From Tubiluchus corallicola (Eukaryota; Animalia; Priapulida), in contig JAQGDQ010000254.1 in assembly GCA_030141605.1 (NCBI GenBank), positions 1-64,000 on the forward strand: DNA of 64,000 nucleotides, read 5' to 3'. A program made the position numbers and the translations under genes. Below the pieces are notes generated by a model that saw only the letters and a program-made list of their open reading frames with translations, did no database searches and was not told the DNA's origin. Position 1 is the stretch's first letter. The number at the start of each line of letters is the position of its first letter. Below, one piece after another: positions 8,501 to 56,757 of the stretch.

Positions 8501-11094
8501 ATGTTGACTTACCTGAGCTCATCAGCACAGCAGGAGATGTAGAGGCAGTAACAGAAAAGGCAACTGAGGAAACTGATGTTATTCCCGATTTGCCTGAAGT
8601 TACTTTAGAGAGAGTTGAACATGAGTTAATTGCTCCTGTAGTGCCACCTAATGCTAAGGAAATGGTGCTATCAGAACGTGAACTATCTGAATTGATTAGT
8701 ATTGGTGAGGTTATTGAACAAGTAACCAATGAATATGCAGACATTGAACATTATCCACAAAAGACCGAGATATCTGTAGAAGTTCACTGCAAGTATCCTA
8801 GGGAAGTTAGCTTTTTGATAGCAGACAATAAACGTGCTGATGAAGAAGACAAACTAAAGCCCACATTGAAGAAGAAGAAGCAAGTAAAGAAAGTTGCAGC
8901 TGTGGTTAAAAAAGAAACTGAAAAACCTGTTGTAGCTGCAAAGGTAATTCCTCTGTGCTTTGTAGAAATTAATTATGAGCACCCTGTACAGGCGTCATTA
9001 AATGTGTGTCTAGAACATGTCAAGGAGAAGTTGCCATTGCCACATATGCGAAAATCCAAATTCTTTCACGAAACAAAAGCTACACAAACTGCAGGAGTAA
9101 GCAGTTCTCTACCAGATTCACAGAAGATACTCAAAGGTCGAGATACTATTAAGAAAGTTCAAGAATCTAAAGCTTTATATTTAGGCCAATTTCATGCACC
9201 TGACATCTGCGGGATGGAAATAATTGTAGAATCTGACTCGGAGGAAGACTATCCTTGTTATACAGACAAAATTACATATTACAAAGAGGGGAAGTGGGGC
9301 ACTAAATCACCATCTCAGGAAAAGGGTGGACAAAGCACTGATTATTATAATGAACAGTCTGACACTTATCCCATACCTGTGCAAACACAAGTTCCTCCTT
9401 TGGTGGAAGAAACTGATGAAAGCCACATAAAGAAACTACTGCAAGAAGCAGAGGAGTTGAGACTTGAACATGAACGCTCTAAGCAGCCTGAGTATTTTGG
9501 AAGGAGAGACATGAAAGGAGTATTCAGTGAAAAGGGTGACATTTATGAGGAACGTAAGTCATACAAAAGTAATTTGCCAAAACAACAACATGACACTAAG
9601 CAGATCATGAAAAAGCCAATATCAACTTTTAAGAAAAAGTACGAGCTTGAAGTTGATCGGCGACAGAAAGCTTTAGTAAAACATGTCGAAATAAAGATTG
9701 AAGCAGGATCTGCCATTAAATTATCAGAGTGCAATAAAGGAACAGCAAAAGCAAAATCAAAGCCATCAGACCACAAAGAAAAGACGGACAGGCAAGAATA
9801 TTCTTTTGACCTAAAAGTACTTGAAAAGAAGGAACCACAATATAAAGTGAAAGAATCAATTTGGTATGAAGCTAAAGATATGACTGAAGCAGAGCTCATA
9901 CAGAAAGGATTGGCTGAGCATTGGAAGCAATACCGTCTATCTACTGAAGGAAGAGGTGAAGCACTAGTTCAACTCGTGGAAGTTATTGTAGATGAAAATG
10001 AAGATGACGAACGTATTGTGTACAGATTTATGAAGAGATTTAAAGAGGGTGATGAAAAGAAACGCACAAAACCTGAGGTTGTACGTCAAGAACCGTTAGT
10101 TACCTGCAGTACGCATGAAGAAAAGCCAGAACTTTCCCGACCACATTATCAACAGCCAGATATTCGTTTCAGACGGTCTACTGGAGATAAAAATCGCGAT
10201 GTTTGTTTAAGGTTACCAGATTTTTCCTGTAAAACAAATGCATTTGGTTCGCCTCGTCCTAGTAGACGTGATTTTTCAAAACTCTCTGATAATTCTGCTT
10301 TTGATATTTACAAAAGCCATTATTCTCGAGATCCACATAAAGGCTACTTGCATACCTCTTCAGATGACCACAAGTACGGGAGAGGTTCTGATTATAATGT
10401 TCGTCACTTATCTAGTGCCAGTGATTCACTTAGTCAAAGTGATGCTTTAAAACTGTCTTCGTTTGCTATTCCGAAACTTGTCCGGGGTAAATATTTGGCG
10501 GTGCCAGAACCAATGAGAGTTCGAAAGACTTCTGTAAAAAGCCCAAGTCCTTCGAGCAGTCCGCAAACGCCAGAGCAACGGCAGTTGTTTAAGAGAGCTG
10601 TGCAAGGTACACAGCAGCGCTTGGAAGAACTATCACCTAGCCTATATCACCGCACCACAATCACTCCACTACAGCAATCATCTGAGAGATTATCTCAGAT
10701 CAAACCCAAACGATACCACTCTCGCTGTTTGGATCATTCAGATGAAGCGAGTCCTGTGATGGATGCCAAGCAGCCATATCCATCTTCTAGTCAAGCTGCT
10801 GCAACGTGGCTGAAGCGGCAGGAGTTTTTTAGAGCAGAAAGTTCTATTCGGCGGCGTCATGGCAACGAGACCAAACAAAAGACTCCTGTTTACACTCATA
10901 GGACGAGTAGTAAGGAACAGTTATGTACTAGTCCAACTCTTTCGTGGGAATTCAAGGAAGAAACGCAGAGGAGGCGATCATCTGCTGATCTTCCCCAAAG
11001 TCTGCACTTTTCTGCCCGACTTTCTCCGCGAATATCAGTAGCTTCTAAAAGTCGTGACACGTCTCATTTGAAAAGGAAGCCAAAACTTGACTAA
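1..11094 (+). CDS. Giant repetitive acidic protein, 5'-truncated at window edge (probably a giant terminal exon); about 41 tandem repeats then a Lys/Glu-rich and Ser/Arg-rich tail
   Basis: Frame is open from base 1 (GAG GAT ATT...) to TAA at 11092-11094, so the TTG start at 58 in the ORF track is an artefact. Indels between units are multiples of 3 (198/201/213 bp). Family not recognised. Confidence 0.85.
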   Translation, partial: EDIEQVTKDVVEELDDIPDLVTVDESVDVILDDATLMPKDVELEITSAEAEQVVLSDAELPQLVIAGEDIEQVSKDVVEELDDIPDLVTVDESVDVILDDATMMPKDVELEIIARELQPEAEHVVLSDVELPELVSAAEDIEQVTKDVAEELDDIPDLGPVGESLDVILDDAALMPKDVQLEITSTEAEQAVLSDAELPQLVIAGEDIEQVTKDVVEELDDIPDLVAVDESVDVILDDATLMPKDVQLEITSTEAEQAVLSDDELPQLIIAGKDIEQVTKDVVEELDDIPDLVTVDESLDVILDDATLMPKDVQLEITSAEVEQVVLSDAELPQLVIAGEDIEQVTKDVVEELDDIPDLVTVDESVDVILDDATLMPKDVQLQITSTEAEQVVLSDAKQPELVSAGEDIEQVTKDVVEELDDIPDLVPVGESVDVILDDATLMPKDVELEIIVRELQPEAEHVVLSDVELPELVSAAEDIEKVAKDVVEELDDIPDLVTVDESVDVILDDATLMPKDVELEITSAEAEQVVLSDVELPELVIAGEDIEQVTKDVVEELDDIPDLVTVDESVDVILDDATMMPKDVELEIIARELQPEAEHVVLSDVELPELVSAGEDIEQVTKDVVEELDDIPDLVTVDESVDVILDDATLMPKDVELEITSAEAEQVVLSDVELPELVIAGEDIEQVTKDVVEELDDIPDLVTVDESVDVILDDATLMPKDVELEIIARELQPEAEHVVLSDVELPELVSAAEDIEQVTKDVTEELDDIPDLVAVDESVDVILDDATLMPKDVQLEITSTEAEQAVLSDDELPQLIIAGKDIEQVTKDVVEELDDIPDLVTVDESLDVILDDATLMPKDVQLEITSAEVEQVVLSDAELPELVIAGEDIEQVTKDVVEELDDIPDLVAVDESVDVILDDATLMPKDVELEIIVRELQPEAEHVVLSDVELPELVSAAEDIEKVAKDVVEELDDIPDLVTVDESVDVILDDATLMPKDVELEITSAEAEQVVLSDAELPQLVIAGEDIEQVSKDVVEELDDIPDLVTVDESVDVILDDATMMPKDVELEIIARELQPEAEHVVLSDVELPELVSAAEDIEQVTKDVAEELDDIPDLVTVDESLDVILDDATLMPKDVQLEITSAEVEQVVLSDAELPQLVIAGEDIEQVTKDVVEELDDIPDLVAVDESVDVILDDATLMPKDVQLQITSTEAEQVVLSDAELPELVSAAEDIEQVTKEVVKERDDIPDLVRVGESVDVILDDATLMPKDVELEIIARELQPEAEHVVLSDVELPELVSAAEDIEKVAKDVVEELDDIPDLVTVDESVDVILDDATLMPKDVELEITSAEAEQVVLSDAELPELVIAGEDIEQVSKDVVEELDDIPDLVAVDESVDVILDDATLMPKDVELEIIVRELQPEAEHVVLSDVELPELVSAAEDIEQVTKDVVEELDDIPDLVTVDESVDVILDDATLMPKDVELEITSAEAEQVVLSDVELPELVIAGEDIEQITKDVVEELDDIPDLVAVDESVDVILDDATTMPKDVQLEKTAHELQAEAEHVVLSDVELPELVSAGEDIEQVTKEVVKEDDGIPDLINVDESVDVILDDATLMPKDVELEITSADAKQVVLFDAELPEVVIAGEDIEQVSKDVVEELDDIPDLVAVDESVDVILDDATLMPKDVELEITSAEAEVVLSDAELPQLVIAGEDIEQVTREIVEEHDDIPDLVTVDESVDVILGDAALMPKDVELEITARELPSEAEQVVLSDIELPELVIAGEDIEQVTKVVAEELDDIPDLVAVDASVDVILDDATLMPKDVQLEITSAEVEQVVLSDAELPQLVIAGEDIEQVTKDVVEELDDIPDLVAVDESVDVILDDAALMPKDVELEITAHELPSEVEQVVLSDVELPELVIAGEDIEQVTKDVVEELDDIPDLVAVDASVDVILDDATLIPKDVELEITSAEAEQVVLSDAELPQLVIAGEDIEQVSKDVVEELDDIPDLVAVDESVDVILDDATLMPKDVELEIIARELQPEAEHVVLSDAELPQLVIAGEDIEQVSKDVVEELDDIPDLVAVDESVDVILDDATMMPKDVQLEKTAHELQAEAEHVVLSDVELPELVSAAEDIEQVTKDVAAELDDIPDLVAVDASLDVILDDATLMPKDVEFEITARELPAEAVQVVLSDVELPELVSAAEDIEQVTKDVVEELDDIPDLVAVDESVDVILDDATLMPKDVELEITSAEAEVVLSDAELPQLVIAGEDIEQITKDVVEELDDIPDLVAVDESVDVILDDATLMPKDVELETIARELQPEAEHVVLSDAELSQMVIAGEDIEQVSKDVVEELDDIPDLVAVDESVDVILDDATLMPKDVELEITARELQAEAEHVVLSDVELPELVSAAEDIEQVTKDVVEELDDIPDLVTVDESLDVILDDATLMPKDVELEITSAEADVVLSDAELPQLAIAGEDIEQVSNDVVEELDDIPDLVAVDESVDVILDDITLMPKDVELEISSTEAEQAVLSDVKLPELVSAAEDIEQVTKEVVEEHDDIPDLVTVDESLDVILDDATLMPKDVELEITARELPAEAEQVVLSDIELPELVIAAEDIEKVTKDVVKELDVIPDLVAVDASVDVILDDATLMPKDVELEITSAEAEVVLSDAELPQLVIAGEDIEQVSKYVVEELDDILDLVAVDDSVDVAFDDATLMPKDVELEITSTEAEQIVLSDVEQPELVIVGEDVEQVTKDVVDKLDDIPDLVPVGESVEVILDAATSMPKDVQLEITAHELQAEAEHVVLSVVELPELVSACEDIEQATEKVVEGRDDFPNVDLPELISTAGDVEAVTEKATEETDVIPDLPEVTLERVEHELIAPVVPPNAKEMVLSERELSELISIGEVIEQVTNEYADIEHYPQKTEISVEVHCKYPREVSFLIADNKRADEEDKLKPTLKKKKQVKKVAAVVKKETEKPVVAAKVIPLCFVEINYEHPVQASLNVCLEHVKEKLPLPHMRKSKFFHETKATQTAGVSSSLPDSQKILKGRDTIKKVQESKALYLGQFHAPDICGMEIIVESDSEEDYPCYTDKITYYKEGKWGTKSPSQEKGGQSTDYYNEQSDTYPIPVQTQVPPLVEETDESHIKKLLQEAEELRLEHERSKQPEYFGRRDMKGVFSEKGDIYEERKSYKSNLPKQQHDTKQIMKKPISTFKKKYELEVDRRQKALVKHVEIKIEAGSAIKLSECNKGTAKAKSKPSDHKEKTDRQEYSFDLKVLEKKEPQYKVKESIWYEAKDMTEAELIQKGLAEHWKQYRLSTEGRGEALVQLVEVIVDENEDDERIVYRFMKRFKEGDEKKRTKPEVVRQEPLVTCSTHEEKPELSRPHYQQPDIRFRRSTGDKNRDVCLRLPDFSCKTNAFGSPRPSRRDFSKLSDNSAFDIYKSHYSRDPHKGYLHTSSDDHKYGRGSDYNVRHLSSASDSLSQSDALKLSSFAIPKLVRGKYLAVPEPMRVRKTSVKSPSPSSSPQTPEQRQLFKRAVQGTQQRLEELSPSLYHRTTITPLQQSSERLSQIKPKRYHSRCLDHSDEASPVMDAKQPYPSSSQAAATWLKRQEFFRAESSIRRRHGNETKQKTPVYTHRTSSKEQLCTSPTLSWEFKEETQRRRSSADLPQSLHFSARLSPRISVASKSRDTSHLKRKPKLD

Positions 11095-14368: not shown

Positions 14369-15174
14369 TACAACGTCAAAAATGATGTAGCCTGCATGGC
14401 TGTCGTATTAACATATAAATTCTGAACAGGTTTTTTACAGCGACCTTACACATTAACATTTTTCAGGTCTGAACTTTTTATGATTATTCAAGTCAAGCAA
14501 ACCGTTAAGTACTTGCAATAAGATACTTTCTAATGAGTATCTGTGATCGGTTCTTAAACTCTACGGCAAGATGCACTGCTCATAGTCTGGCAGTAGATGT
14601 CTTTACTACAAAAAATCCACAGGCCCAGGTTCCAATGTTTTTGCGCGCATGCGTTTCATTTAGTCCTGTTTCAAGCTTAATAAACTCAATACAAAATCGC
14701 TTCGGAAAGTTGCGGTCACTAGGCAGCATTCCACAATATATAATAAGAAAATACAAAGCTTTAAAAGTTAATCGAAATCACGTTGTCTCAAGTTTGCTTT
14801 CGCTTTAGACACACAATGAAAAACACACATTACCTCCTGGCAATTATTATGTTATTAAATTCCTTTAGAAGTGCCTATTGAACGCATTTAAAGAGCTGAA
14901 CATCTGCTACTGATTTCGTGCCGCCAGGTTATACGCAGACTCAAAGACAAAAGTATTATTGTGACACATCCAAGTGTTAGCCCTAGGCTTTTATAAGGTT
15001 ATCAGCAAGGGCTTAGAAGCTTTTCTGCGCATTTCCACCTCGGCGATATCAAACGAAGGGTACTTAAGGTTCAGGAGGAATAAGAATCCAACATACATTG
15101 GCAAAATGCTCATGAAAGCATGTTACTAATGCTCTGTACCTAATTGGACATTAGCCTGTGTTCTTAAACACATT

Positions 15175-18100
15175 ATGACGGGGGCAAATCATGCTTTTCT
15201 CAAACTTTCTTTATGTACATGCTTTGTCGTTTTGGTAAAAGCCGTTGTACCACCAGCTGCACTGCAGACTGCTTACATTCTTGAACCAGGTGATCTGATG
15301 TTGGGACTGTTGTTAGGCGTCCATGACTACCACCCCGTAAAACCCTGTGGAGAGAAGATAACTGAGTATCGCCGTGTTCCTGCCGTATATACTATGGAGT
15401 TCTTGAAACAGAAGTTCGAAGCCGACCCCACCATTCTACCGAATACCAGCATCGGTTATGTCTGGTACGACACTTGTTACAAGGATTCTACTGGAATGGC
15501 ACAAACATTGCATTTTATACCAGATTCTTGTACCTCTGACAGCTCTGCCACTACAAGTACTCCGCTTTTGCAGCCTCAAGATAGCAATGATTTCTTGAAC
15601 ATGAAAGGCAATGAATATGTCGATGTCGTAGGAGTAGTAGGCGCAACATTCAGCTCCACAAGTATTCTAATCAATCATATCCTTAATATGTATGAAATAC
15701 CGCAAGTCAGTCAAGCATCAAGCAGTGATACACTAAGTGACATCAGCAGACATGAATACTTCTTTAGAGTTTATCCGCCTGATAGGTATCAGGTGCTGGC
15801 CATCATGAGTGTTATCAAGCATTTTCAATGGAAATACATTTCAATGATATACTCTGAAGGTAGTTATGGTGAAACTGCAGAAAAGTACATTCACGAAGAT
15901 GCCAAAAAAGAGGGAATCTGCATGGCTGTGGTGAGAAAGGTGCCATATAGTGCCACTTATGCCGACTTTGATGCATACGCCAATGAGCTCATCGAAAACT
16001 CCAAGGCAAGGGTGGTAATACTGTTTTGCCTTGGCGACCATGTACCATGGCTTTTCAAAAACCTCCAAGCAAAAAACTACACGAATCATTTCATTTGGCT
16101 TACCAGCGAAGCTTGGGGAGGAACCTTTGCTGATTACAGAGACATAGAGCAGATGTCTCTTGGGACCATTGCCATCACTCCAACTGTCAGAGATGTCCCA
16201 GAATTTGACCAGTGGTTTTCATCACTGACTCTGAACGATTTTACAAAGTATGGGCTGATGAATATCTTTTGGGAGAAGAAATTTAATTGTTCGATAAACG
16301 GAAGTAGTGGCACTCGTACATGTGACCGCAACACCAGATTGGGGGCACAACATGAACCACACCCAGTGACATCCTTGTTACTTGATGCAGCCAATGCATT
16401 AATATACAGCATAGATAAGCTACTTAAGAGAAAATGTCCTGAAACAACAGGTCAGGCTACTAGAAACTGTATAACAGGAAAAGAAGTACTTGAATCTATG
16501 AAGACAATAAGTTATCCCGGGTATACAATGGATACGATTCGCTTTAATGAAAATGGCGATATCCGGGCCCAATATGTGGTGCAAAATTTCCATGCAAAAC
16601 ATGGAAAGTATATTTTAGAGCACATAGGATCTTGGAGTGAGGCTGAAAACAGATTACTCTTGTTCAAAAAAGTGACCTGGGCAACAAGAACAATGGAAAA
16701 CAAGTCTGAAGAATATTTTGTTCCAGAATCTGTTTGTGCAACATCATGTCCGCCAAGACATTACAAGCAACAGTTGGAGGTGTCATGTTGCTGGGAGTGT
16801 AGAGCATGCAGAGAGAATGAATACCTGATTAACAACAATACGAAATGTGTCGCTTGTCCAAAATTCACCTGGCCCCAGGAATCTGACGATACGAACTGTG
16901 AGATTATTCCCCCAAGTTACCTAGATGTGACAGGAACTGCTGGGCTCATCAGTATTGTTCTGACAATCTTTGGGATTCTTTTTACCTTTTTGGTTACCGT
17001 TTTATTTCTGTGGCATCGGAATGCTAAGCTAATTAAAGCATCGAGCAGAGAACTGAGCATCATAATCCTGGTGGGCATTCTACTGTCGTTCTTTGTTGTG
17101 TTTCCTTTGTTATTGAAGCCGAAGTCGGGACACTGTGCCATTGGTCGTTTTGGGTTCATACTCTGCTTTACAACCATCTATGGTCCACTGTTGGCAAGAA
17201 CGAATAGAATCTACCGCATCTTTGAAGCTGGCAAGAAGACAAAGATGGTGCCGAGTTGTATAGCACCAAGATCACAGATGATGCTGAGTGGACTATTCAT
17301 ATTGATCCAGGTACGTCTGTAATGCACATTCCAATAAATATTAATTTTTTTACATTGATCACTTGACAAAATCATGCAAATCGTTTGGAGTTCAAAAATG
17401 ATTCTGCAGTTTGTAATAACAGAACAGAATTAGCCCATGAAGGGATTAAGGACTGGAAAGCCTAGAAGAAATTACTGAACTTAGCCCAGATCCCTTAATG
17501 AGATTTGAATTCAGTGACAGTCTTGGCTTTCTTACTGTAAACAACATTATCCACCCTTACTTTACCTAGAAACAATAAAAATGGTGATAAAGAACATAAT
17601 TGTATAAGATTAGACATTCACTTTGTACTTGCGCATGGTAAAAAGCAGACTTTGTTCATGTCCTGCAATAAATAGACATGTTAGACTTAATGCAAACTTG
17701 GTGCTGACTGAGTCTGAACTCAGGCTGGTTAGAAAGTAAAGGGTTTGATATCACATATTAAGGATAAATGAGAATTGGCAAATTGCCAGAATCACCCAGG
17801 CAAAACTAATCAAAGCTACTGATGGTTTGATTTGTGAGACATCCTCACTCAACCTGCATTCAGTGAATAATTGATAGTGCATAAACTAAGAAATTTGCAA
17901 AACAAACCATTTAATGACTTACTTTACAATGATCTTTAAAAAAATAGTCATTTAATAAAACTTTTGTAGACTGTAAGCAGACAGATCACTGTTTGGTCAT
18001 CATTACCTAACAACATATGCACAATATAAGAAATTTCAAATTTACTCATTAAGTTTGTCAGTTTGATAAAGTCGTGAAAAAATGCTTAATCCATCTCATT

Positions 18101-18934
18101 CTTGTCATTGTATAAGACGACAAAACTAGGTTGAATTTGCAAGATAACTCACTATGATTTTATATACCATAATATTGTTTTTCTTCTTTGATGACACTAA
18201 TCACTTTTAGTTTAACTCTTCACTAATTTGTCTGCACAATTTGTTTGAAATTAACACGTTTCAATTAGTTTAGCCATTTTTTGAAGTACGTTCTGAAGTT
18301 ATTTTCTCATCAATATTCTCACATAAATATAAAACAACAATATTTATTGATATCATTTCATTTGCAGGCAGTAATTAGTACAACATGGGCAATAATAGAA
18401 CCACCCAAAGTTGTCCTGGAGATGCCACAAGTGGTGTTACGCTACGTGGAATTACGCTGTCACATGAGTGCAGGGGAACTCGTTACCTCCGTCAGCTATA
18501 ACCTTTTGCTGATCATCATCTGCTGTTACTACGCTTTCAAGACACGCCGCCTACCAGACAACTTCAACGAGTCCCGTTTCATCTGCTTCTGCGTTTACAC
18601 CACCATGATCATGTGGCTCGCATTCCTGCCCACATACTTTACGACAGCCACGCCGCTGTACAGACCCATCTACCTGTCATTGGCACTTATCATCAATGCA
18701 TACGTAACCACTGCCTGCTTTTTTATACCGAAATTATATGCGATTTACTTTGCGACAGAAGACAAGATGAATTTAACCAAGGATGGTCCGGCAGGTAAAG
18801 TGGGCAAAGCTAAAGCTAAGGTAACACCTGGAGTCTCTGTCACCCAGCCAGGTACAACAGGCCCAACAAATTCTGAATCTGTCAGTACAAGCACAAAGAC
18901 TAATCCACAGCCCTCAACAAAACAGAAGGCATAG
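15175..18934 (+). CDS. Metabotropic glutamate receptor-like class C GPCR, about 900 aa; exons 15175-17310 and 18368-18934
   Basis: Signal peptide, Venus flytrap motifs (PGDLMLG, PQVS, YFFRVYPPDRYQ, GSYGE), Cys-rich domain (PESVC, CCWEC), 7TM (IKASSRELS, RTNRIYRIF, KTRRLPDNFNESRFI, FIPKLY). Phase-0 intron CAG|GTACGT...TTGCAG|GCA joins the two ORFs in frame. Confidence 0.93.
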
Positions 18935-20022: not shown

Positions 20023-28983
<8,961 letters not shown>

Positions 28984-44000: not shown

Positions 44001-47000
44001 ATTTTGCCTTAATTTTTTTATGAAACCATTTGCATTTCTTATCACTAATCAATTTCTAACATGTCTTTTTCTGCAATTTAATCTTATTGTTTATAGCTGT
44101 AGACTGCATAACTGGTTTGGTGAATGATGCCAAATCCATTGAGGAAACAGCTACCAAGCCTGTTCATTATGTACTAGGCATAGACAATAATGGGTGCATT
44201 AGGGATGTCACTTCACGCTATGCATCTGATTGGCTGACTCAGACTCACAAATTGAGAACTGAAGAACAATGGTGGGAAGCAACTTTGGCACCTTATAAGT
44301 CGGATGACCTATTTAGAGAAAAAGAAGAAGAACTGCAATTAAGAGGTATCATTATTAATTAGCATCATAAAATGAGTATGTATATACACCCAAATGTGGC
44401 CAAGACATATTTGTCGGTTCACTCGTTGATCTTAGAGAGATATTCTTAATAATGTGTTTAATTGAATTTAATTGTTGCATTTTTGCAGATAAAAATCAAA
44501 GTTTTTGTTATCCTTTAATTCTAACTAAACAGATGCCTAATTACATTATTTTCAGCGTTTTAGATTTTATAACATTAAATCAGTGAAGTTCATTTATTGT
44601 CTTCTAGCGAATCAAAGTGTCGGGGAGGGTAAACTGTCTGAACATTTACATTTCATCTCCAAGGTTACTAACTTACGGCAAACTAATCCTCTCAAACTAC
44701 GCGTATCATTTTTAATATGCTTTTATATTATAATATTTATATATTTTAATTTTTTATATGCATAAGCATATTAAGAAAAGTAACATTATGTATACAGGGA
44801 GAAACATACTGAGCTAGGATTGACTTTGACTTTCACCTTGAAAGTCAATTGTGATTTATATTAGGTCATTCTGTATTCTCACTGAACTAGGTGCCTTTTG
44901 GCGGTAGGTCTTTTTGAGTGACATTAATTTAAAATCAATAATATTTATAGTGTAGCTGGAATTTACTTTGAAGTTTACAAAAAAGGCTGAAGTACCCTAG
45001 AAGAGTAGTTCAAGTGAGAGAAGCCAATTTCTAAGCAAGTAAAGAAACTCTTACGAATTGTTTTGTAAAGTGTAATTTTCTGGTGTAACGTGTACGTTAT
45101 CAAATTTATACATTTGCTAATATTTTGACCAATTTCCAGTCTTCAGCAAAGAAAGATCACTGAGCAACATTATTTTATTTGTTTGGAATAAATCAAAGGC
45201 AAAGTTCACATTCAAAATATAGTTAGAACAACAATAAATAACAGTTAATAACATACACACACATAAGTTTCTGAAACTACATTTTGGGCTGAGTAACATG
45301 AAACCTATTTGGTATCCCTGTAATATGTCTGCTCTTTCTTTCATTACACAAATTTTTAGCTACAACTTGTGTGATTTTAGAACATCATCTGAAGACGTAG
45401 CATTTTATTGATAGCTTAGGGAGGCCACGCATTTGTCTCACATAAAGCACGACTTAACACAAATGGTCATCCAATTGGCAATTTGTCAAACTTTGTCACT
45501 GCTGTCACAAGTACATTTCAGTGTGTGGACACATTTGCATTTGTTTCTGTCTTTTGATCTAGTAATTTCTGTTTTAACGTAGCTAATTCCTGTTAAATTG
45601 TAGATCAACTTATGGAAAAACCGATGCCTACCAGCATTCAAGCATTTAAAAATAACCAGTTATATGCACTAAAGCGCCACTTACTTAAATTTGAAGACAT
45701 ATACCCCCGCACGGCACAAGTTCTGGGTACAATCAGAGGTGAAGCTATTTATGCCAGAGAATGTGTACACACTGTAAGTACATTTTTCTTATGTCTAGTT
45801 TTCTTTAAGTTTGCTTTTTACCTCTTTCAAGTTTTCATATTCAAACTTTTATTTACAAATTCATTTTGATGCATTAATTTCATTAATTTTTTTGATAACA
45901 CCAAAGAATGCTTATGATGTTATATATTTGATTGTTCAATATTTGAATGATTTATTTATTGATAAAGGTAGCAGATAGTAGCCTTGTGTTGCAGTCTGAT
46001 TCTGTGATGTATTTCTTGAGTGACTTTCGTCTTATGTAGATGCACTCTTATTGGCTGATATTTATTAGAAACCACTGTGGTTGGTCAGTGATGTATTACC
46101 TTGCTGTAATTCGTCTGTATCACTGTGACCATGTTATAGCAATAAATCAGTAAGTGTTCTCGAAGAAACAAAAAATTTCGTACGTATTTGTTCATATCAA
46201 GCATAATATTGTAATGAAATGGGATGGTGCAGATTCACTTGGTCAATGAGATTATGCAGAAAATCGTCAGGTAAGTGTACAGAAACAGAAAAATTTAATT
46301 ATTAACATCTTCTTGCATCCTGCATACCAGTGGAACAGGTGCTGCGATGGAAAAAAGCACCTGCAAGACCACAAAACCGTTTGATCCCAGTATATTTATA
46401 GACCTCAGTATGCAGTGGCTTCATATTACAGTGCAGGGGTTAGAGTGAAAACAAATGGCATTTTGCCCTCATTACAATATTATCTTAAAGTAGATGAAGG
46501 TGATTAGGTCCTGATAATTAGTAATTATATTAGCATTCATAATGTAAGGAGTGAGAACGTTAGAATGTGAGAATAGTGGTAAAGTTTATTCTGTAATTTA
46601 CTTTTCTGTAGTGGCTCATGGCTGTGAGTGCCAGGCATACTTTAAATTTGCAAGTCTCCTTAATAGAAACATCTACCACAAAGCCCAAAAGAAGCTTTAG
46701 CCATCCATCAAGGTTACTTGCAAGACTTTTTGTCAATATTTGAAAGAGATTTTCCATTAATATTGAGCACTCTGTGGTGAGGAATCAATGATAACACTGA
46801 AATTGTCAAATTAACAAAAGCAGGGAGAAATTTGCAGAACTAACATAAACGACAGTTTCTTAATTTGCCTGTTAGTTGAAAACTGTATGTATGTCCAGTC
46901 CTAGCACACTAACTATTTTAAGAGATTTGGTACCTAACCTTAACAACATGATTAAATTCTTTGCTCTGTTACTAATGTTATTTTTGTTCTTCACCTTTTT

Positions 47001-50000
47001 CTATCTTACTGATAAGTTTATTTCATAACTTACCTATTATTGTCAACAGATTTCTGTGACTAACGTAGTAATGTTATCGCATTTTATTTTACATTTAAGC
47101 TACACTCGCGGGAAACATGGCTGAAAGAAGCACGGTCTATTAAAGAAGGCGAAGTACCATACAAGATGGTAAAACCACGACCCAAACCGGGTAAACCTAA
47201 AGGAGAACCATTAGAAGCCACCCTTCAGCTTTACGGAAAGTGGCAAACAGAACCGTATAAACCTCCACCTATAGAAAATGGCAAAATACCACGGAATCAA
47301 TACGGAAACGTTGAGCTATTTAAGCCATGTATGTTGCCAGAAGGAGCTGCTCACTTGAGACGTAAGCATGCTACAGTAGGATTTAACACAATGAAAGTAA
47401 CGAAGCTTTTTTATCACTGGTACAGTAGAATCTTGGTTATTCCTAATAATGATCTCCCTAGCCAGATTTTTGTAGATATAGTGAAGTTTAATTTTTATCT
47501 TAATCGATGCAACAGGAACAGTCTCAATACATGGTGACATACTATGAATATTGTTACATCATACGTTAATATTACTATCATATACACTATCATTACTGTA
47601 AAGGAATAATTGTACTGCAGTGGGCTAGGCAAGCAATACTTGCATGTATAAGTCCAGTGACGTGAACCAAAAAAAGAACAGGGAGAAAGATTAGATCACA
47701 CAGGAAAGGAAGAAAGATGTGTTAGTGGAAGTTGTAAGAAGAAAGGCAGCAGGTTGTACGATGTTTACCTCAGCTCTAGATATCGACTCATCTTTTAAGC
47801 ATAATTTGTACTGGGATTGTGATATATGAATTATATTTTAAAGTGCTTTGACTTTTAATGCTCAATGAATCCTTGCAAGAGATGGGCAAGTGTGAGCCAG
47901 TTTGCATTTTTTTGTGTGTTTGGCACACTTCAAGTCAGTATCCAACATTCAGTGGCATTGTATACTCAGGAAAACATTTTTACCTTGGTGGTGTAACTGT
48001 AACCTAGCTCTTTATTACGGATATCTCTCTAAGGTGAGCCAGTGAACCGGCAAATTTGTTTAGACCACATTTTGGTGGATTTACATCCTCATCTTATGAG
48101 GTAAATGGCTGAGAACCAGTGCTGTGAGTGAAACCTTTAGGGACACATATATCATACCCAAACAGTCACTTAGGGATGCTATCTTCTACTAAAAGGATAC
48201 TGATTTAAAATCTTTCCGACACTTTGTAGATACGCCTCTTGTTTTAGTTGATTTAGGAATATTCTGTAAATAAATTCCAGCCCTTATGGGGCATTTAGAA
48301 CATTCATTCTCAACTAAATCCACAGTAAAACCACATCTTTGAAGAGTTTATTTAATGTGAGTAGTTGTGCAAGGGTTCTTTTCTCTAATTACTGTACTAG
48401 ATTTGTTCAAATTATTTTTATGATCTCTTTAAAACTAATCTTTGATGAGACATTTTTAATATATTACATTCTAATAAAAAGTCTTGTGGTCATTATTTTT
48501 TAGTACCTGGTTTAAATCGAATAGCACAAAAGTTGGCCGTTGATTGTGTACCAGCTATGGTTGGTTGGGACTTTCATGGAGGATACAGTCATGCCGTGTA
48601 AGAATTGCTACTATAATTTTCAAATATAATATTCATTTCAAATTCAGTTTATTTTTATAACTTTGAAAATGACACCTGCTTATAAATAGTCATACATGAA
48701 ATCAATGGGATGTTATTTCCAGTGTTAGAAGGCTAATCATTAAATACCTGTAATTAACACCTTCATGAGTATCCACCTATCATAGCTGGTATGTGAATAT
48801 AAGCACCTGCAGTTTTCTTATATTTAAGTGCGCATAAATAGTATTAAAGCTTTACTAAGTATTATTTGCTTTCTAGTACCTGGATTAAACCGTATAGCGC
48901 AAAAGTTGAACGTTGATTGCGTACCGGCTATGATTGGTTGGGACTTCCATGGAGGCTGGAATCACGCAGTGTAGGTGGAGTGAAAATTTCGAAGTCCACA
49001 CAAAATTTAAAATAATTTTTTTTATTCGTAGTAGGACAAATGAAACTTTCAGATAATCAAAAATCACTAAATACTACCATACTCAATCTATCATTTGTAG
49101 TTAAACTGCACTAGCTTCTGTTGGTTTAATGTTTTCAAATAGATGACAACTTATGTATAATGAAGTGACATCTAGTGACAAGGAAAAGGAAGAGTTATGA
49201 GTGGGAATCTTTTAAACTACAATGGTCGTAAAGGGTGGTCATTGCTTATTATAGAGAGACTTGATTTAGAAAAATTGAAAATGTCAATTTAAAGTTTTTG
49301 TTTGTAACTTGTACATACATTTATAAGAACTGAAAATATTTTATAGTTTTCACTTGTAGATTGAGGCATGTGAATAACGCTCAAGCAAAAATAATTGGTT
49401 ATCTTGAGTTGCGTGATAACAAAAATTGTTTGCGTTAATTTGCATAGACATTAACTCATTAAACATTTCTTTTACCTGGTTGATTAAAAGTTAGGAGTAA
49501 TTAGTCTCAAATAAACTGACTTGACTATAGTAATTTGTGACTGAAATCCATGTGGAATGTTTAATTAACAGTTTAAAGCAAGCTGTTCAACTTATATGCT
49601 GTACACATTCATGTAAAACACTAAATTGTGTAAGTTGTGCAAGTCCATCTCTTGTGCATTTAGACTTGACGGCTACATCGTCTGCGCTGAACATGCTGAT
49701 AGTCTCCGTGAAGCTTGGGAGGCGGAACAGGAAGAATTTGAACGCAGGCAGAAACAGAAACGACAGAAAAAGGCAATAGCAAATTGGAGACTGTTGACGC
49801 GTGGTTTGCTGATCAGAGAGAGATTGCGCAATCGCTATGATCTACAGGTCAGTTGCCTTAGTTGTAAAGGTTGATTGAAAAGTAACTGCTGAATTTTTAG
49901 GCTCATTAATTTTTTTTAATCTAATAAATGTTTAAAAAAAATCTCTACTACAGTATTAAATTCTATTTATAGTATTGTCGTTTTATGACGCTGAGAGCTT

Positions 50001-50188
50001 CTGCCAAACAACTTTAATCTTTCCTGCAATGACATTCACCAGTTTTACACTACGTCGAACATTTTCTTTCACAGAAACCCAAGCCAGTGAATATCAAAGA
50101 AGGAGAAAAAGCAAAAGATGACGAATCATCTTGGCCCAGAAACAGAGGACTTGTGAAACAGCTTGACACTTACAGTGAACAAATGTGA
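32041..50188 (+). CDS. XPC: XPC/Rad4 DNA damage recognition protein, about 945 aa; exons 32041-32182, 34050-34658, 35554-35650, 36715-36799, 38029-38247, 38591-38653, 39620-39706, 40859-41190, 42890-43020, 44097-44345, 45604-45773, 47100-47361, [48504-48597 OR 48877-48970], 49664-49847, 50075-50188
   Basis: All GT-AG with consistent phases (2838 nt). Motifs [102 protein letters not shown]. The low-complexity N-terminal exons 1-4 and exon 6 are less certain. Confidence 0.92.
41541..42824. mobile_element. Non-autonomous DNA transposon (MULE/hAT-like) in XPC intron 8
   Basis: Imperfect TIRs GGGTTACTCTCGTTTCCCAG / GTGGGAAACAGACATAAACCT, subterminal TTCCCAGAAA-type repeats inverted at both ends, and 8-bp direct repeat TGAAGAAT at 41533-41540 and 42825-42832. 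Confidence 0.7.
43309..43630. repeat. Long inverted repeat (foldback, arms about 150 bp, spacer about 25 bp) in XPC intron 9
   Basis: e.g. AAAAGATGGTATTTTGGCAGAATTAAATTTC vs GAAATTTAATTCTGCCAAAATACCATCTTTT; TTCCCTCTGAACGTGCA vs TGCACGTTCAGAGGGAA. Confidence 0.93.
48504..48597 (+). CDS. XPC: XPC exon 13a (BHD3 beta-hairpin): (L)[31 protein letters not shown]
   Basis: TTTTTAG acceptor, GTAAGA donor, 94 nt, phase 1 to 2. Confidence 0.9.
48877..48970 (+). CDS. XPC: XPC exon 13b (duplicate): (L)[31 protein letters not shown]
   Basis: TTTCTAG acceptor, GTAGGT donor, 94 nt, same phases as 13a, no stop codon. Confidence 0.85.
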
Positions 50189-51524
50189 ACACAAGGCGTT
50201 TCCACAGTTGAAGAAAAACTCACTTTTTACGAAATCATGGTTTCTGCTTTCACATTTTGGGAGAAAATTTTCCTAGTTGTTAAATAATTTACACTATTTA
50301 AAAAGTTGTTAGATTGCTGTATGTGTAATCAAGTTTTCTTGGTATACTAATGTGGTTCAAATGCAGAATATTTTCTACGTTGATCATGGACTGAATAACA
50401 AAAAGTGTTAAACTAAGTAATCACAGTTGTTGATGATGTGTAATGCGTAGAATCATGTGATTTTGCATACAGGAATAATTACAGTTGTAAAACGTTTTTT
50501 CATTGAATATTAAATTATTCATCATCACGTACACAATTCTATTGCATAAATCTAGAAAAAAATAATTACAGTTCTTAGCAAAAGACCAGTTTGTGTTCTG
50601 TGTTCACTATTATCAGCCAATAATTACTAACGACCGATAAGCAAGATCCACACGTGACTAAATGATTATCTGATCATGTCGTCCCAAATTTCATTTGCAA
50701 AACGTCTTAAACTTGATCATCTATTCATTCAGGTTGCAAGTCTCCTGTCGTTATGTTTACAATGGTAACAATGTATTTGATGTAGGATTTTTAAAGGACA
50801 CTGTAAGAGCAATACTATCAGACTATACACTAGCAAAACATGAGAAATCTTATTCTTGTTTTACAGTATGGCTAGTACTATTGTACATGTGCAGGTGCTA
50901 AACAAACTAAAACAGTGCTCAGTAACAAAGGTGATAAACCAAAATTAATAAGCTAGAGCTATGTGCTGCATCATTTACACTTGTACGTAGCCCAGCCACA
51001 CTCAGTTATCAGGTTTTGACTGTTCTGCTGACTTGATTACTTTTGTGTACAAGTTTACCTTGCAAAAGATACAGTGTAAAACTCTACTTTCGTGCTCACA
51101 GCTACTGTGTCAGGGCCTTGGGTTCTAATATAAAATAATGGGAAATCCGAGTTTAATCATACAAATTAAGCAGAGTTAACCGAAGAGCATTTCTTATTTC
51201 TGTTTAAACTTAACAACGAAAGTGTTTTTGTAAGCCACAATGTAGAAACAGCTAATGTCAGAGTATGTCTGTGACAGGCTGAAAGCCTGAATTTACGAAT
51301 GATTTAACTACACATGTATTAGCAAGATAAAATGTATGCCAGTGACATGTAACTACATAACAAAACAACTAACTAAATGCTAAATTACATTAACCACTAA
51401 TAACTAAAAAAAAGTGTTGCTTCTAACTATATTCTGTATTGTAAAAGCTTTAAACAAAGCATGTTGTGAGACAAGAGAACAATTATTTGCATTTAGTTCG
51501 CATTAACTAACGAGATATTTAATT

Positions 51525-51747: not shown

Positions 51748-54060
51748 CTAACTATCAAACCATTTGCTTTCTTTCATACCAATACCCGCAAACTTGTTTT
51801 TGTACTGATTTATTAATTTGTCCAAACTGTCACTTGTCTTCTGCTTAACTCGAATGTTTTTCTGCTTCTCGGGCTTCACAACATCTCTTTTGACCTGCTG
51901 CCTAGACTTTTTCCCAATTGGCTTGTTAGATTTTACTGCCCTGGCTTTGTGCCGAATTTTCGGGCCAAAATGAGAAGGCAAAGTATTTGGTGGTTTTCGC
52001 TTTCCAGATGACATTGCTGTGCCGTCCTTTTGATGCTTCTGAATTTTACTTTTAGTATCCTTAACAATTGTCCCAGTATCTTGCTTGGCTTTTTTGGATA
52101 CACCTCCAACATCATCTTTTATCTTTCGCTTTTCAGCGGTGCCTTGTTTCAGCATATTTCGCTCTCGTTTTCGCTTCTGGGCATTAAGAGCGACCCTGTT
52201 TTCTAACGAAAATTCTACGATGAGCCTTCGGTTGTTAGGAAATAGATTTGGATTGTTATTGGTGTTGTGCAATGCAGACAAAGCATCTTCGTGTTTGGCA
52301 AACTCCACAAAACCATAACCAAAAGACTTGGCGATGCCCTTGCTGTTAACCTGCCTCCTGTCCCTCATTACTCTAGCCTTGGTAATCCTCGTGATTTTAG
52401 TTTCAGCAGCTTTTGCAAATATTTCCTTTAAATTTTTGTCATCAACTGACTTGGGAAGATTTCTCACACATAGACGGACACACGAGATGAAAATATTCAA
52501 GTTTTTCAGTTTCTGTCTTTTCGTCATTTCTAACTGTTGACGTTTCAGGAGGTCCTGTTTTGGTGTTCCAGCAGCTGCTTGCGTTCCCATTCGTATTAAT
52601 CCCACACGTGCAAGGTGGAGGTTACGGTTATCCTTTGGCTCTTTTTCTTTTTGGGTAAGCTTGCTCGCTTCTTCTCGATTAATGGCTTTGGTTATTAACA
52701 GCTTTCTGTTTTTCAAAATCAATGAATTATCGGCTGTATTACTCTTCTGTATGCAATCTTCTGCTGCTTCCACTGTAGCAAATTTCACAAAAGCTGTCCC
52801 TTTTGGATGCTCGGTGAGAGGATCCACACAAACTCGGATGTACACTACTTTCCCAAACTGTTTGAAAATGCCGTCTATATCTGCTTCCTCTGCATCATAG
52901 CTGAGATTTCGTATAAAGACTGTTTTGCCTTCGCCAACATCATCTGGAAGCTTTAATCTCTCTTTTTTTGATTTAGTTTTACCACTTTGTTGCTCTACGT
53001 CATACTCGTCTTTTGTATCACTGCCATCATGATCTAAATCACTATCAGCATTATCATCGTTTGGATCAGAAATACTACCGTCCTCATTGTCGTCATCACT
53101 GACACTGGATTCTCTGCTTTCATCATTGTCGTCAGACTCACTAACTGCACCTTTTTTGTCAGATTCGGTCATATCGTTACCTTGCCCCGTGACCTTGCTT
53201 TGCATTAAAGTCATGTACTGTTGTTTCGGCAAGGCCCAATCAACAGCGATTTTTCGTCCCTTCACTTCCATCATGTTCACTTTGTCCACAGCCTCAGCAG
53301 CAGCGTTAACATCAACAAACTGAACAAATGCAAAACCAGGCATTTTTCCATTGCCCTTTTTTGGTATAACTACTTCACTCAATTCACCGTATTTGGAAAA
53401 GATCTTTGTAAGATCGCTCTCTGAGCACTGAAAGGGAAGATTCCGAACGATTAACCTTGATTTTTTTAAAGACAGCTTCTGCCGAGAAGTTGCTTGTTCT
53501 TTGTCAGCTAGCAAGAATGTTTGCGCTTTGCACTGTTTTATCATTTTTCCACTGAGTTTCTTTCTTGCTTTAATTGCACTTCCAACTGTAGCAAATGTCA
53601 CTAAAGCTGTTCTATCAATGACATCAATACTGGCAGGATACTCTAAAGATCGGACATTCTTCAGCTTTTTCAGAGTTTGCATTACATCTTCTTTTACTAC
53701 AGTTTCATCTAAGCCACTAAGTACTAAAACTTTCTTATCGGCATCTTTTTCATGTATCACGTTCTTTGAATTTTCCTTTGCTTTACGTTTTTCTTTTCGT
53801 TTATCTAATTTATGCTCGGCAAACTGAATGAACACTTTCCTGTTCTCCACAGATTTCACCTCTTTCATTGCGTTTTCCGCATCCTCCCGCATAGCAAACG
53901 TGACGTATCCAAAACCTCGGCATGTATCACTCCCCTTTTCCTTAACTACGAAGCACCTATTTACCGGTCCATATTCACTAAATACATTTTCTAGCTGCTT
54001 ATCTGAGGTTGTATAAGTTAAGTTTCTCACAAATAATGTTTTGCTACAAACACGAGCCAT
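51748..54060 (-). CDS. RBM28: RNA-binding protein 28 (Nop4 ortholog), 770 aa, intronless CDS
   Basis: RRMs (TLFVRNL/RGFGYVTF; RLIVRNL/GFAFVQF/IAVDWAL; TVFIRNL/KGTAFVKF; RLCVRNLP/GYGFVEF), acidic linker, KDNRNLHLA, NNNP...RRLIVEFSLEN and basic tail. Confidence 0.95.
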   Translation of the reverse strand: MARVCSKTLFVRNLTYTTSDKQLENVFSEYGPVNRCFVVKEKGSDTCRGFGYVTFAMREDAENAMKEVKSVENRKVFIQFAEHKLDKRKEKRKAKENSKNVIHEKDADKKVLVLSGLDETVVKEDVMQTLKKLKNVRSLEYPASIDVIDRTALVTFATVGSAIKARKKLSGKMIKQCKAQTFLLADKEQATSRQKLSLKKSRLIVRNLPFQCSESDLTKIFSKYGELSEVVIPKKGNGKMPGFAFVQFVDVNAAAEAVDKVNMMEVKGRKIAVDWALPKQQYMTLMQSKVTGQGNDMTESDKKGAVSESDDNDESRESSVSDDDNEDGSISDPNDDNADSDLDHDGSDTKDEYDVEQQSGKTKSKKERLKLPDDVGEGKTVFIRNLSYDAEEADIDGIFKQFGKVVYIRVCVDPLTEHPKGTAFVKFATVEAAEDCIQKSNTADNSLILKNRKLLITKAINREEASKLTQKEKEPKDNRNLHLARVGLIRMGTQAAAGTPKQDLLKRQQLEMTKRQKLKNLNIFISCVRLCVRNLPKSVDDKNLKEIFAKAAETKITRITKARVMRDRRQVNSKGIAKSFGYGFVEFAKHEDALSALHNTNNNPNLFPNNRRLIVEFSLENRVALNAQKRKRERNMLKQGTAEKRKIKDDVGGVSKKAKQDTGTIVKDTKSKIQKHQKDGTAMSSGKRKPPNTLPSHFGPKIRHKARAVKSNKPIGKKSRQQVKRDVVKPEKQKNIRVKQKTSDSLDKLINQYKNKFAGIGMKESKWFDS

Positions 54061-54178
54061 GATCTCAAGGAATTAGATTCGATTAACTAGCATTCCAAAC
54101 TCTTTATATTCATGAGATGCTAAGCAGCTCTTCAGCTACCGGCTAAATCTTTGTTTCAATTGCTTTGGCTGGATCATG

Positions 54179-54710
54179 CTAATCATTTGATTCTATATTC
54201 TTAAGTTGTGCTATAAACTTTTTCTTTTCTGCCTCTATGTATTCATCCAGATCCTGGAAAAAAGAAAAATATGACAATCTAGTGGAGAACTAATACTGTC
54301 CTATGTTCCTGTAGAGAGTATATGCTTGCATTCATATATCAAAACCATCCTAAGCAATTATTCTGCAACTAAGGCAGATTTATGATTGTACAAAAATAAA
54401 AAAATCTGTCAATTTTATTCATTTTTTACTAAATTCCAATCTCAGGTACTAACCAGGTGAAATATGGATTTGATCGTGTTAGGAAACGTAGAAACCAGGT
54501 CTGATAAAAATGTATTCATCCTATCTCCTGAATTATGCACCATAGATCACCAATATAAAAACCTCAAAATATTTTTATTAAAAACTGTTGAGACAAACTT
54601 ACATCAAGAGGTCTGTAGATCATGTGGACAACTTGTGATCCAGCAAACATGGATAATCCAGCAGCTATTAAAAATCTAAGGTATGCACCCCATGTGACAC
54701 CAGCAGGCAT
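54179..54710 (-). CDS. UQCC6: UQCC6/BRAWNIN (C12orf73, fly Sloth2) microprotein, 60 aa; exons 54710-54603 and 54253-54179
   Basis: MPAGVTWGAYLRFLIAAGLSMFAGSQVVHMIYRPLD|DLDEYIEAEKKKFIAQLKNIESND*; family hallmark MPAGVxW..Y...SM.AG..VVH..YRP; phase-0 intron GTAAGT...TTCCAG. Confidence 0.9.
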
Positions 54711-55284
54711 TCTGTGCAGCAAAATCAGGCTCTGCAAAAATATCAGGTTTAACCTTAATATTAACACCATAATATTAATATCACCGCACTGAAGGGAATT
54801 TCATATTAAACGTTAATGACATAAACACCCTTAAAGCAGTAGATTCTGTATTTCAGCCAGTAAGTGTGTCAAATATTTCAGCCCATGCCTTGAATCCTTA
54901 GTGTTCCTGTTCAAATCCCAACTGGAGTTACCACGTCTTAGCCCAAATCCAAAATGAGTCTCCGGTTGCTTTGGCAAGAGCTCCAGTTGACTGTCATGTT
55001 CACAGTGTGCTAGTGGCAAAGCCAAATTCACATAGAAATGATCCAAAATTTCATCGATTCTTGAGATAGTATTTAACGGTAATTTATTGTTAACTTCAGT
55101 TATATTGTGGTTATTAATACAATAACTTATTGACTATTATTGAAGCTTTGTTATTTCAGCATCCTATTCAAAACTTCCTATGCCACCTTCTATTAAGTGA
55201 CACTAAAAATTCATTACCACAACCACTACTGCGGACTTACTAGGTAATTTCTGTTTTATAACATATTCCTGCACATAATTAACT

Positions 55285-56383
55285 TTATTGTTTGACATTA
55301 ACAGGATTTTCGGTTGTTTCTACAGAATTTTCAATTGTTTCCACTAGCGCTAACTTCTTGGCTCGCTTGGCAGCTTCTTTGCTCTTGAATACCCTATCTA
55401 AAAATAAAGTATTTTTATTTTAATGTGTAATGTGCACAGTGAGCATACAATAGGCAAGAACTAAACTAAAAGCAAAATGAGTCCTGCAGTGGTAATTGCA
55501 CTGTAAGAACAAATGCAGCTAATGTTTAGAACCTAAACTAAAAAAGTATAACATCAAATAAATATTTCTGCATGTAATTATTGGATTAAGTACATTTGCA
55601 AATGTAAATTTATGCAATGTAATATTTTTCTATTGACAGCACAGTACTTTACAATATAGCTCTCTTTCTATATAAAACTAATTACAATTGCTTTGGGAAT
55701 CTTTTAATATTTGGCTAAAATTGAATGTGAAGCATTATAATACATGTTGCAACCACTTTTATTTAGGTTATGTTACAGTCAACCTCGGATATAAGGGACA
55801 CCGCAGGACTCAAAAAAACCGTCCCTTATATCCAATGTCCCTTATAGCCGAAGTTGAGTCAGACCGAGGGTGGATCTAGATCTGTATTTTTACACATATT
55901 TTTATGGATCATTGCTACACATTCAGTGCAAACGGTATGTAGGAAGCAATGAATGTTGCGAGATGTATGTGACTGCGGAAACCGAGCTAATCGAAGATCG
56001 AGTATGCGAAAAATTCAGGTTAAAAATCGATCAATATCACTTTTGATCATAGGGTCCCTTATATGCGAGGTAATTTACCTGGCTTTCTATTACGCGGGAC
56101 GTGAAGATATCGATCCTTATAACTGAAAGTCCCTTATATCCGAGTACCCTATATACGAAGATTTTTTCATAGGACAACAAATAACTCAAAAAGTCAAGCA
56201 ACAATTTCAGTGAATGTTTAACTTACAAAAGTTTGTTTCACCCACAGTCCAATTAATCATCGAAAATTCCAGTGCTGCGCCCAAAACAAAGAAAACTGGT
56301 AAAAATCTGTAAATTCCAAACACTCTTTTTCCAGGCCAGCGGTCCAAAATTTTCCGTAAAGTCTTACTGTATAAGAAAACCAT
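55285..56383 (-). CDS. UQCC5: UQCC5/SMIM4 (fly Sloth1) microprotein, 89 aa; exons 56383-56227 and 55397-55285
   Basis: MVFLYSKTLRKILDRWPGKRVFGIYRFLPVFFVLGAALEFSMINWTVGETNF|YRVFKSK...; family hallmark PGK..FGIYRFLP.FFVLG..E..MI...VG...FY; phase-1 intron GTAAGT...TTTTAG. Confidence 0.92.
55776..56165. mobile_element. pogo/Tigger-like MITE in the UQCC5 intron, right end apparently truncated
   Basis: TA|CAGTCAACCTCGGATATAAGGGAC left end; inverted subterminal GTCCCTTATA(TCC) motifs near 55821, 55837, 56054 and 56129. Confidence 0.65.
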
Positions 56384-56757
56384 ACTAAACGAACTCCACG
56401 TTTCGTTCACGTATAGCAGCTATAGATGTGTTGCAGCGATTTTACACCATACTTGTTCATGCCGCGCCCTCTCTTGTGCAGTTGTGCTCATGCGATAAAA
56501 TGCCAAATATGTCACCTAGTCCGCCCAAGTGCTTCTCTGAAGAAGTAAACGAACTATTCGAAATAAAGTTTTCTTTTCAACTCGCTTTTTCTGAATAAGC
56601 ATGCTCACATTCACGTCTAGTAGTTTTACTTGATTATTTATGAATGAAATTTCTGAAAAAGCCAGTTATGAATTCTGGCTTTTGGCCTAGCCTATCTTGT
56701 CTTAATTTTGGCCTAAAACGTTTTGGTAAAATGTTGTATTGTGTGTTAGGTTATATG

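Follow-up and report, generated by a model that had tools for sequence, protein, structure and literature searches.

Two tandem copies of the BHD3 hairpin exon in the XPC gene of the priapulid Tubiluchus corallicola

In a stretch of 64,000 nt from the priapulid Tubiluchus corallicola (assembly GCA_030141605.1, contig JAQGDQ010000254.1, positions 1–64,000), referred to here as the window, the gene for the DNA damage sensor XPC has two intact tandem copies of the exon that encodes the hairpin of its domain BHD3. The two copies, 13a and 13b, very probably form a functional one-of-two exon pair. They are likely to be spliced one at a time, giving two full-length proteins whose main difference is at the tip of the hairpin, with YS in one and WN in the other, and it is highly likely that the living animal makes use of 13a as well as 13b. 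The explanation that best covers all observations, and that we regard as probable, combines one-of-two use of the hairpin exons, an RNA docking element that switches between them, decay of aberrant messages and hairpin tips that are tuned to different use. Papers are cited below by PMC number.

Two copies of the hairpin exon

The gene was identified as XPC/Rad4 by the order of its domains, as the Rad4 transglutaminase-like domain, BHD1, BHD2 and BHD3 (PF03835, PF10403, PF10404, PF10405) follow each other on successive exons (Table 1). Exons 13a and 13b are 94 nt each, have the same phase, are both bounded by AG on the 5' and GT on the 3' side and are separated by an intron of 279 nt. They differ at 16 of the 94 bases, and of these changes 10 are synonymous and 6 non-synonymous, so that four residues are changed from 13a to 13b (A>N, V>I, Y>W, and S>N). 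A preliminary description of this DNA had arrived at the same lengths, spacing, splice sites and differences, and all were recovered when recomputed. It had also assigned the exon to the BHD3 hairpin, in agreement with two comparisons: both copies match positions 27–51 of the Pfam BHD_3 model (27.2 and 27.4 bits at a cut-off of 27), right after the part matched by the upstream exon, and 13a aligns without a gap to residues 777–805 of human XPC, where the changed residues correspond to positions 787, 795, 803, and 804. Three of the six non-synonymous changes sit in two adjacent codons at the tip. Adjacent homologous exons of equal phase with intact splice sites are the mark of tandem-duplicated mutually exclusive exons, and a self-comparison of positions 8601–64000 returned eight repeated pairs, only one of which, 13a/13b, was recognised as coding.

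Table 1. Coordinates of XPC exons and associated elements in the window
Feature	Position	Strand	Basis
XPC coding exon, C-terminal part of transglutaminase-like domain	44097..44345	+	Pfam Rad4 match, splice sites, frame
XPC coding exon, BHD1	45604..45773	+	Pfam BHD_1, frame
Common upstream exon (BHD2, start of BHD3), donor GTAAGC	47100..47361	+	Pfam BHD_2, BHD_3 1-25
Alternative exon 13a, tip YSH (human Y803 S804 H805)	48504..48597	+	Splice sites, Pfam, frame, alignment; covered by run X1 contig
Arm in exon 13a, pairing with candidate docking element	48544..48561	+	18 bp, 5 G-U
Candidate docking element, intron between the copies	48779..48796	+	Repeat scan, pairing tests; pairing reaches about 48764
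Branch-point-like CTAAG (candidate)	48855..48859	+	Motif scan; 22 nt upstream of 13b acceptor, 257 nt from 13a donor
Alternative exon 13b, tip WNH	48877..48970	+	Splice sites, Pfam, frame, dN/dS
Arm in exon 13b, pairing with candidate docking element	48917..48934	+	18 bp, 4 G-U
Common downstream exon (end of BHD3, C-terminal helix)	49664..49847	+	Frame
Last XPC coding exon, to stop codon	50075..50188	+	Gene model

The copies are separated by a synonymous distance (dS) of 0.84 and a non-synonymous distance (dN) of 0.09, which gives a dN/dS of 0.11 (Fisher p 1.2e-4). Similarity beyond the exon extends just 7 nt upstream and 3 nt downstream, and the flanking introns are no more alike than shuffled sequence, with the observed score reached by 61 of 300 shuffles on the upstream and 114 of 300 on the downstream side. 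Neutral decay was simulated in 20,000 runs per copy, where a copy was counted as intact if it had no more than four changes, no stop and both splice sites; for a copy that had been neutral for half of dS no run was still intact (0/20,000 for each copy). The low dN/dS, the unlike flanks and the simulations therefore demonstrate that the duplication is real and old and that both copies were under coding constraint for most of their history, as had been proposed. That the second copy is an assembly artefact of two haplotypes is scarcely credible, as the copies differ at 17% of sites and have unrelated flanks, while the long contigs of sequencing run X1, which are DNA-like, differ from the window by 0–6 letters over 173–763 nt.

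None of the X1 contigs has a spliced joint. Positions 48836–48956, in the body of 13b, are uncovered, as are other stretches, with no contig across, and nothing is inferred from this coverage. Run X2 gave a single piece, on the last XPC exon only. Over positions 50084–50237 this piece differs from the window at 16 of 154 letters while run X1 (same species label) is nearly identical, so that run X2 perhaps represents a distinct lineage.

The BHD region of the window groups with Priapulus caudatus at a support of 100/99 in a tree of 44 rows and 99 in a tree of 32 rows, Priapulus being the only named member of the group in both. The sole Priapulus XPC model has the tip WNH, as in 13b. Among the first 21 residues of the exon, Priapulus differs from either copy at 7–8 whereas 13a and 13b differ from each other at 2, and on this protein comparison the copies either arose after the lineage had parted from Priapulus or were homogenised later. 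The Priapulus model (P0002, 1450 aa) itself holds two identical blocks, residues 671–815 and 1079–1223, and its length probably reflects a duplicated assembly segment. No XPC protein from Tubiluchus corallicola, and only one named priapulid XPC, was found in protein searches and among the best 150 of 243 matches of a profile search against 1.84 billion representatives.

The reading frame bears directly on how the copies can be used. In the gene model, taken by coordinates, inclusion of 13a alone or of 13b alone leaves the frame open to the normal stop. A message with both reads [13 protein letters not shown] and ends at a stop at 48914, 241 nt above the last junction, and a message with neither ends at 49777, 71 nt above it; the earlier statement that the frame enforces exactly one of the two exons is borne out. 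Stop codons more than 50–55 nt above the last junction trigger decay as a rule, and nonsense-mediated decay would be expected to remove messages that have both exons or neither. Two other routes to exclusivity were ruled out. Steric exclusion requires that the upstream donor and the branch point be no more than about 50 nt apart, and here the intron is 279 nt long with the nearest branch-like motif 135 nt from the 13a donor. Incompatibility of U2 and U12 splice sites is ruled out by the donors GTAAGC, GTAAGA, and GTAGGT, which are all U2-like when set against the U12 consensus. The motif CTAAG upstream of 13b resembles a branch point, and it is treated as a candidate site below.

The hairpin exon in other animals

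The same exon seems to exist in two forms in sea urchins. The sea urchin evidence consists of RefSeq proteins from four species, with three isoform pairs of the same length. In Diadema setosum (XP_072181735.1/736.1) and D. antillarum (XP_071511099.1/100.1) isoforms X1 and X2, both of 1299 aa, have three residue differences that all fall in the hairpin exon, and in Lytechinus variegatus (XP_041459935.1/936.1) X1 and X2 have four differences, from the 1st to the 28th residue of the exon. For L. pictus two annotation versions have one form each, with 7 further differences outside the exon. The tips are FN and YI in all four species, at the positions of WN and YS in the window, so that in both systems one form is aromatic-Asn-His and the other begins with Tyr; apart from the tip the exon differs by 0–3 residues among the four species of two genera. 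RefSeq isoform models are built from genomic exons and aligned reads, and it may be that each sea urchin pair comes from two genomic exons with read support.

In total 30 protein clusters were examined, and for two of them the comparison took in 15 of 22 members and 15 of 17. Two exon sequences were present in eight clusters; three of these are the sea urchin clusters, and the other five, in which a single residue differs between species or records, were not counted. An Anneissia cluster and single records from Amphiura, Holothuria, and Glandiceps had one form of the hairpin exon, and no alternative version of the hairpin was found in the vertebrate clusters examined or in the available parts of the literature on the Rad4/XPC hairpin. 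In Anneissia japonica, isoforms X1 and X2 (P0138/P0187) have the same length and six differences, all at residues 267–321 in the transglutaminase-like region, which may reflect a second duplicated XPC exon or a haplotype duplication.

A motif scan of metagenomes, with a motif biased to typical tips, gave 25 loci. Ten have introns and both neighbouring coding segments in view, five have one neighbour and ten are intronless at this place; two copies were found in one locus, L015, which is 1 of the 25 and 1 of the 10 with both neighbours. L015 has a copy of 97 nt followed by one of 94 nt with the tip FNH, both bounded by AG and GT and in frame, and here too double inclusion and skipping of both are out of frame. 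Among the 16 codons for residues that the two copies share, 9 have a synonymous change. L015 was placed among lophotrochozoans with a support of 94 in the SH-like approximate likelihood ratio test (SH-aLRT), below the mark of 95. Together, the sea urchin pairs and L015 strengthen the reading that one of two exons is used beyond what the sequence of the window had shown.

The 97-nt copy of L015 (positions 3558–3462, minus strand) has a longer, arginine-rich tip, W[DE]N-x3-RWS[ILV]P, with one additional residue and without the usual F799/H800. This tip recurs in 2 of 412 proteins, P0396 and P0406, each identical to it at 21 of 31 residues, and the variant is therefore not private to L015; both proteins look like calls of an exon plus intron. 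Tips of this type would offer the sharpest test of tip function. Two further proteins flagged as having two stretches, P0288 and P0298, have no second copy inside. The exon-like protein P0278 has the tip YNHA, a mix of the two tips of the window, and is the best match to their profile. Cnidarian-like loci have one copy within the same 94-nt boundaries, and the exon itself is therefore ancient.

The 21 residues before the tip differ at 1–5 positions between the copies of one animal and at 6–8 between the window and the other lineages; within a sea urchin species the number is 1–2, against 6–7 for sea urchin and window copies. Pre-tip sequences are thus closer within a lineage, which favours separate duplications in the lineages, or else homogenisation. 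An old duplication with gene conversion may be the alternative, as the FNH copy of L015 is just 2–5 differences away from the sea urchin copies and there is one aromatic-Asn-His copy per lineage. On the other hand the aromatic-Asn-His tip is common in records with a single form too, being found in 23 of 412 proteins. If this exon has been doubled repeatedly, in three lineages, it would suggest a gain from having two sensor tips.

Choice between the copies and role of the tips

The intron between the copies has a sequence, absent from the preliminary description, that is complementary to the body of both exons (Table 1), and it is identical in an X1 contig that spans 48592–48805. It can form 18 contiguous base pairs with either exon, while a run of 18 bp was found in none of 600 shuffled introns, and its best duplex windows were equalled in none of 150 shuffles. 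A gapped pairing score as high came from 5 and 2 of 5000 shuffles for the two exons, from 0 of 388 tiles of the window, from 0 of 10 other pairs of exon and flank within the window and from 0 of 22 in 11 single-copy loci. One element is thus complementary to two arms beyond chance, as expected of competing RNA pairing. The three positions within the helix that differ between the copies all still pair. Predicted duplex energies are -32.0 and -33.0 kcal/mol, and the helices are present in minimum-energy and centroid folds. In folds of partial transcripts the 13a helix has a probability of 0.96–0.99 as long as 13b is incomplete, and once the whole of 13b is present the 13b helix replaces it with 0.98; for the full-length fold the energies are -127.1 and -123.4 kcal/mol, and masking of 13b is favoured by 3.7 kcal/mol. 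The helix with 13a encloses the 13a donor and the helix with 13b encloses the candidate branch point and the acceptor of 13b. Pairing between the introns around the exons was not above shuffles (141 and 195 of 200 as good), and pairing of 13b with its downstream intron, one of six such tests, was equalled by 6 of 200.

From these predictions it is plausible, and we lean slightly towards it, that an RNA switch controls the choice between 13a and 13b, in which the element pairs with one exon body or the other. A helix with 13a would shut the 13a donor into its loop, so that 13b is favoured, and a helix with 13b would do this to the candidate branch point and the acceptor of 13b, so that 13a is favoured. 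As the 13a helix would form first and the 13b helix would win once 13b is complete, the speed of transcription could set the isoform ratio. Ultraviolet (UV) irradiation slows RNA polymerase II.

The arrangement resembles that of human ATE1 exons 7a and 7b, also duplicated exons, where a single element, located in the intron between them, pairs with one or the other of two duplicated arms (helices R1-R3 vs R3-R4) and was shown experimentally to enforce exclusivity; loss of the element raises double inclusion and the elongation rate affects the ratio (PMC7797038). Duplication of one arm of a stem-loop has been proposed to create competing structures (PMC6071210), and such structures have been reviewed (PMC10790352). 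There are two differences. The ATE1 arms are intronic and overlap 3' splice sites (PMC7797038), whereas the XPC arms lie mid-exon in coding sequence, 40 nt from the acceptor, and so depart from competing RNA systems with arms in introns or at splice sites. The ATE1 system is conserved throughout the vertebrates and was proved by mutation (PMC7797038), and the XPC docking element is a prediction from a single genome. A docking element acting on the exon body would carry the ATE1-type switch over into coding sequence.

The consequences for the protein depend on the place of the tip. In yeast Rad4 and human XPC, to which 13a aligns, the tip of the BHD3 hairpin inserts into the opened duplex (PMC6614856; PMC7708039; PMC4713717). 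The part of Rad4 that occupies the space vacated by the flipped bases is residues 599–605 (PMC6614856), human 789–815 corresponds to Rad4 589–616, and simulations name Phe599, Arg601, and Ser603 as contacts (PMC7708039); human positions 803–804 therefore lie in the inserted tip. The tip is needed for full opening in vitro and nearly dispensable in yeast cells (PMC7708039). A residue-level literature search on Rad4 604–607 gave nothing usable. It is conceivable, although we would put it slightly short of even, that the two tips tune DNA opening or dwell time instead of creating a new activity, and the same holds for a difference in their lesion preference. FN and YI are retained over two genera of sea urchins and the long tip over three records, which argues for a selected difference. 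Natural isoform pairs in which an otherwise identical protein differs at two tip residues would amount to a controlled experiment set up by nature, and one that is practicable in sea urchin embryos.

Several observations weigh against the combined reading of one-of-two exons, docking switch, decay and tuned tips. The sea urchin case rests on automated protein models, seen as proteins alone. The docking element was noticed post hoc among 46 inverted repeats, and the fold of the whole region gives a z-score of -1.19 for 13a (28 of 200 shuffles), the other being -2.47. Between the two copies of L015 no exon-pairing element was found, shuffles doing as well in 883 and 915 of 1000 cases. At the protein level human F797 and F799, named as the flipping, DNA-contacting aromatics (PMC4713717), correspond to W and F in both copies and are unchanged. 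Among the 30 exon columns, 803 varies most, with 2.49 bits over 147 distinct segments, 206 of 216 proteins have between them 29 different tip triplets, and yeast without the tip has little difference in survival or in repair of cyclobutane pyrimidine dimers (PMC7708039). Finally, with a branch length of 0.1, 12–13% of neutral simulations still look intact, which allows for recent silencing.

The variability of column 803 and the near-dispensable tip in yeast cells (PMC7708039) would both be expected if the two exons are used and the two proteins are functionally equivalent, the pair persisting since each copy that is spliced part of the time must stay intact. YSH and WNH are, moreover, each the sole form retrieved in other animals (e.g., fish for the former, Priapulus or fireflies for the latter), and purifying selection would look alike. 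We consider equivalence rather unlikely, as the FN/YI split is unchanged in four sea urchins where the rest of the exon varies, half of the non-synonymous changes fall in the tip, and two other proteins share the long tip of L015.

A similarly modest chance is given to exclusivity by frame and decay alone, a mechanism that the ATE1 study names as a separate possibility (PMC7797038), with the complementary intron stretch an inert relic of an inverted duplication. Its Watson-Crick complementarity to the exons, 13–14 of 18 positions, is what a relic could have, and L015 does without such an element. An unselected relic should however have decayed like the flanking introns, which at a dS of 0.84 have lost all other similarity, and the remaining positions of the 18-mer are all G-U, although it must be noted that the helix was defined by contiguity.

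It is quite unlikely that one copy fell silent recently and that a single isoform is made now. The neutral simulations leave some room for it and the full-length fold favours masking of 13b, but both copies keep all splice signals and invariant residues and the sea urchin parallels have both forms annotated as isoforms. Less likely still is that the pair mainly sets the dose of XPC, with aberrant messages decaying and the docking element setting the amount of productive mRNA. Both aberrant products do stop more than 50 nt above the last junction and one central element alone does not forbid double inclusion; a poison exon, however, needs no conserved frame, and dN/dS is 0.11.

As a device the pair is of a known kind, and what is new, as far as searched, is the gene, the recurrence at the tip in three lineages and the predicted docking element in the exon body. 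It resembles the tandem duplicated exon substitutions in which homologous exons are swapped and fine-tune a conserved region, often convergently in orthologues, while those events are enriched in ion channels and membrane proteins (PMC9741552). The main texts of PMC9013439 and PMC9741552 do not mention XPC (0 matches in the latter), and their supplements could list it. Positive selection on XPC was reported in hadal animals in a paper not about splicing (PMC9700323). Literature on alternative, duplicated or mutually exclusive XPC exons, covered as titles and abstract openings with subscription journals mostly outside, held nothing on a hairpin-exon pair. The earlier statement that such a pair had not been described thus holds for that literature, but automated RefSeq models already contain alternative forms of the exon in sea urchins. 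It is tempting to speculate, improbable as the whole chain is, that animals of all three bilaterian branches (an ecdysozoan, sea urchins and a lophotrochozoan) keep two switchable XPC tips, always with one aromatic-Asn-His, that the second tip alters which lesions are opened or how fast, that the choice is made here by a kinetic RNA switch masking either exon body, and that damage-slowed transcription could retune the sensor.

Neighbouring features

Two repeats lie near the hairpin exons. The intron above 13a contains, at about 47580–47750, a very high-copy repeat with a depth in the thousands, and positions 44358–44452 form an inverted repeat pair of 95 nt with 48012–48106; both are probably remains of mobile elements. 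Tail to tail with XPC lies an intronless frame of 774 codons with five RRM matches (51748–54072, minus strand), which we take to be RBM28-like. Two adjacent small genes on the minus strand (54567–54800 and 56210–56419) match DUF4516 and UPF0640. They are presumably BRAWNIN/UQCC6 and SMIM4/UQCC5, both linked to assembly of complex III, and may form a functional cluster. Further upstream, the window contains exons of an RtcB gene (about 21973–26532, minus strand) and a class C G protein-coupled receptor gene with an open stretch of 730 codons (15130–18934, plus strand). At its start, a tandem array of 201/414 nt (1–8700, plus strand) forms a single frame without a stop, at least 2900 codons long, that encodes acidic repeats.
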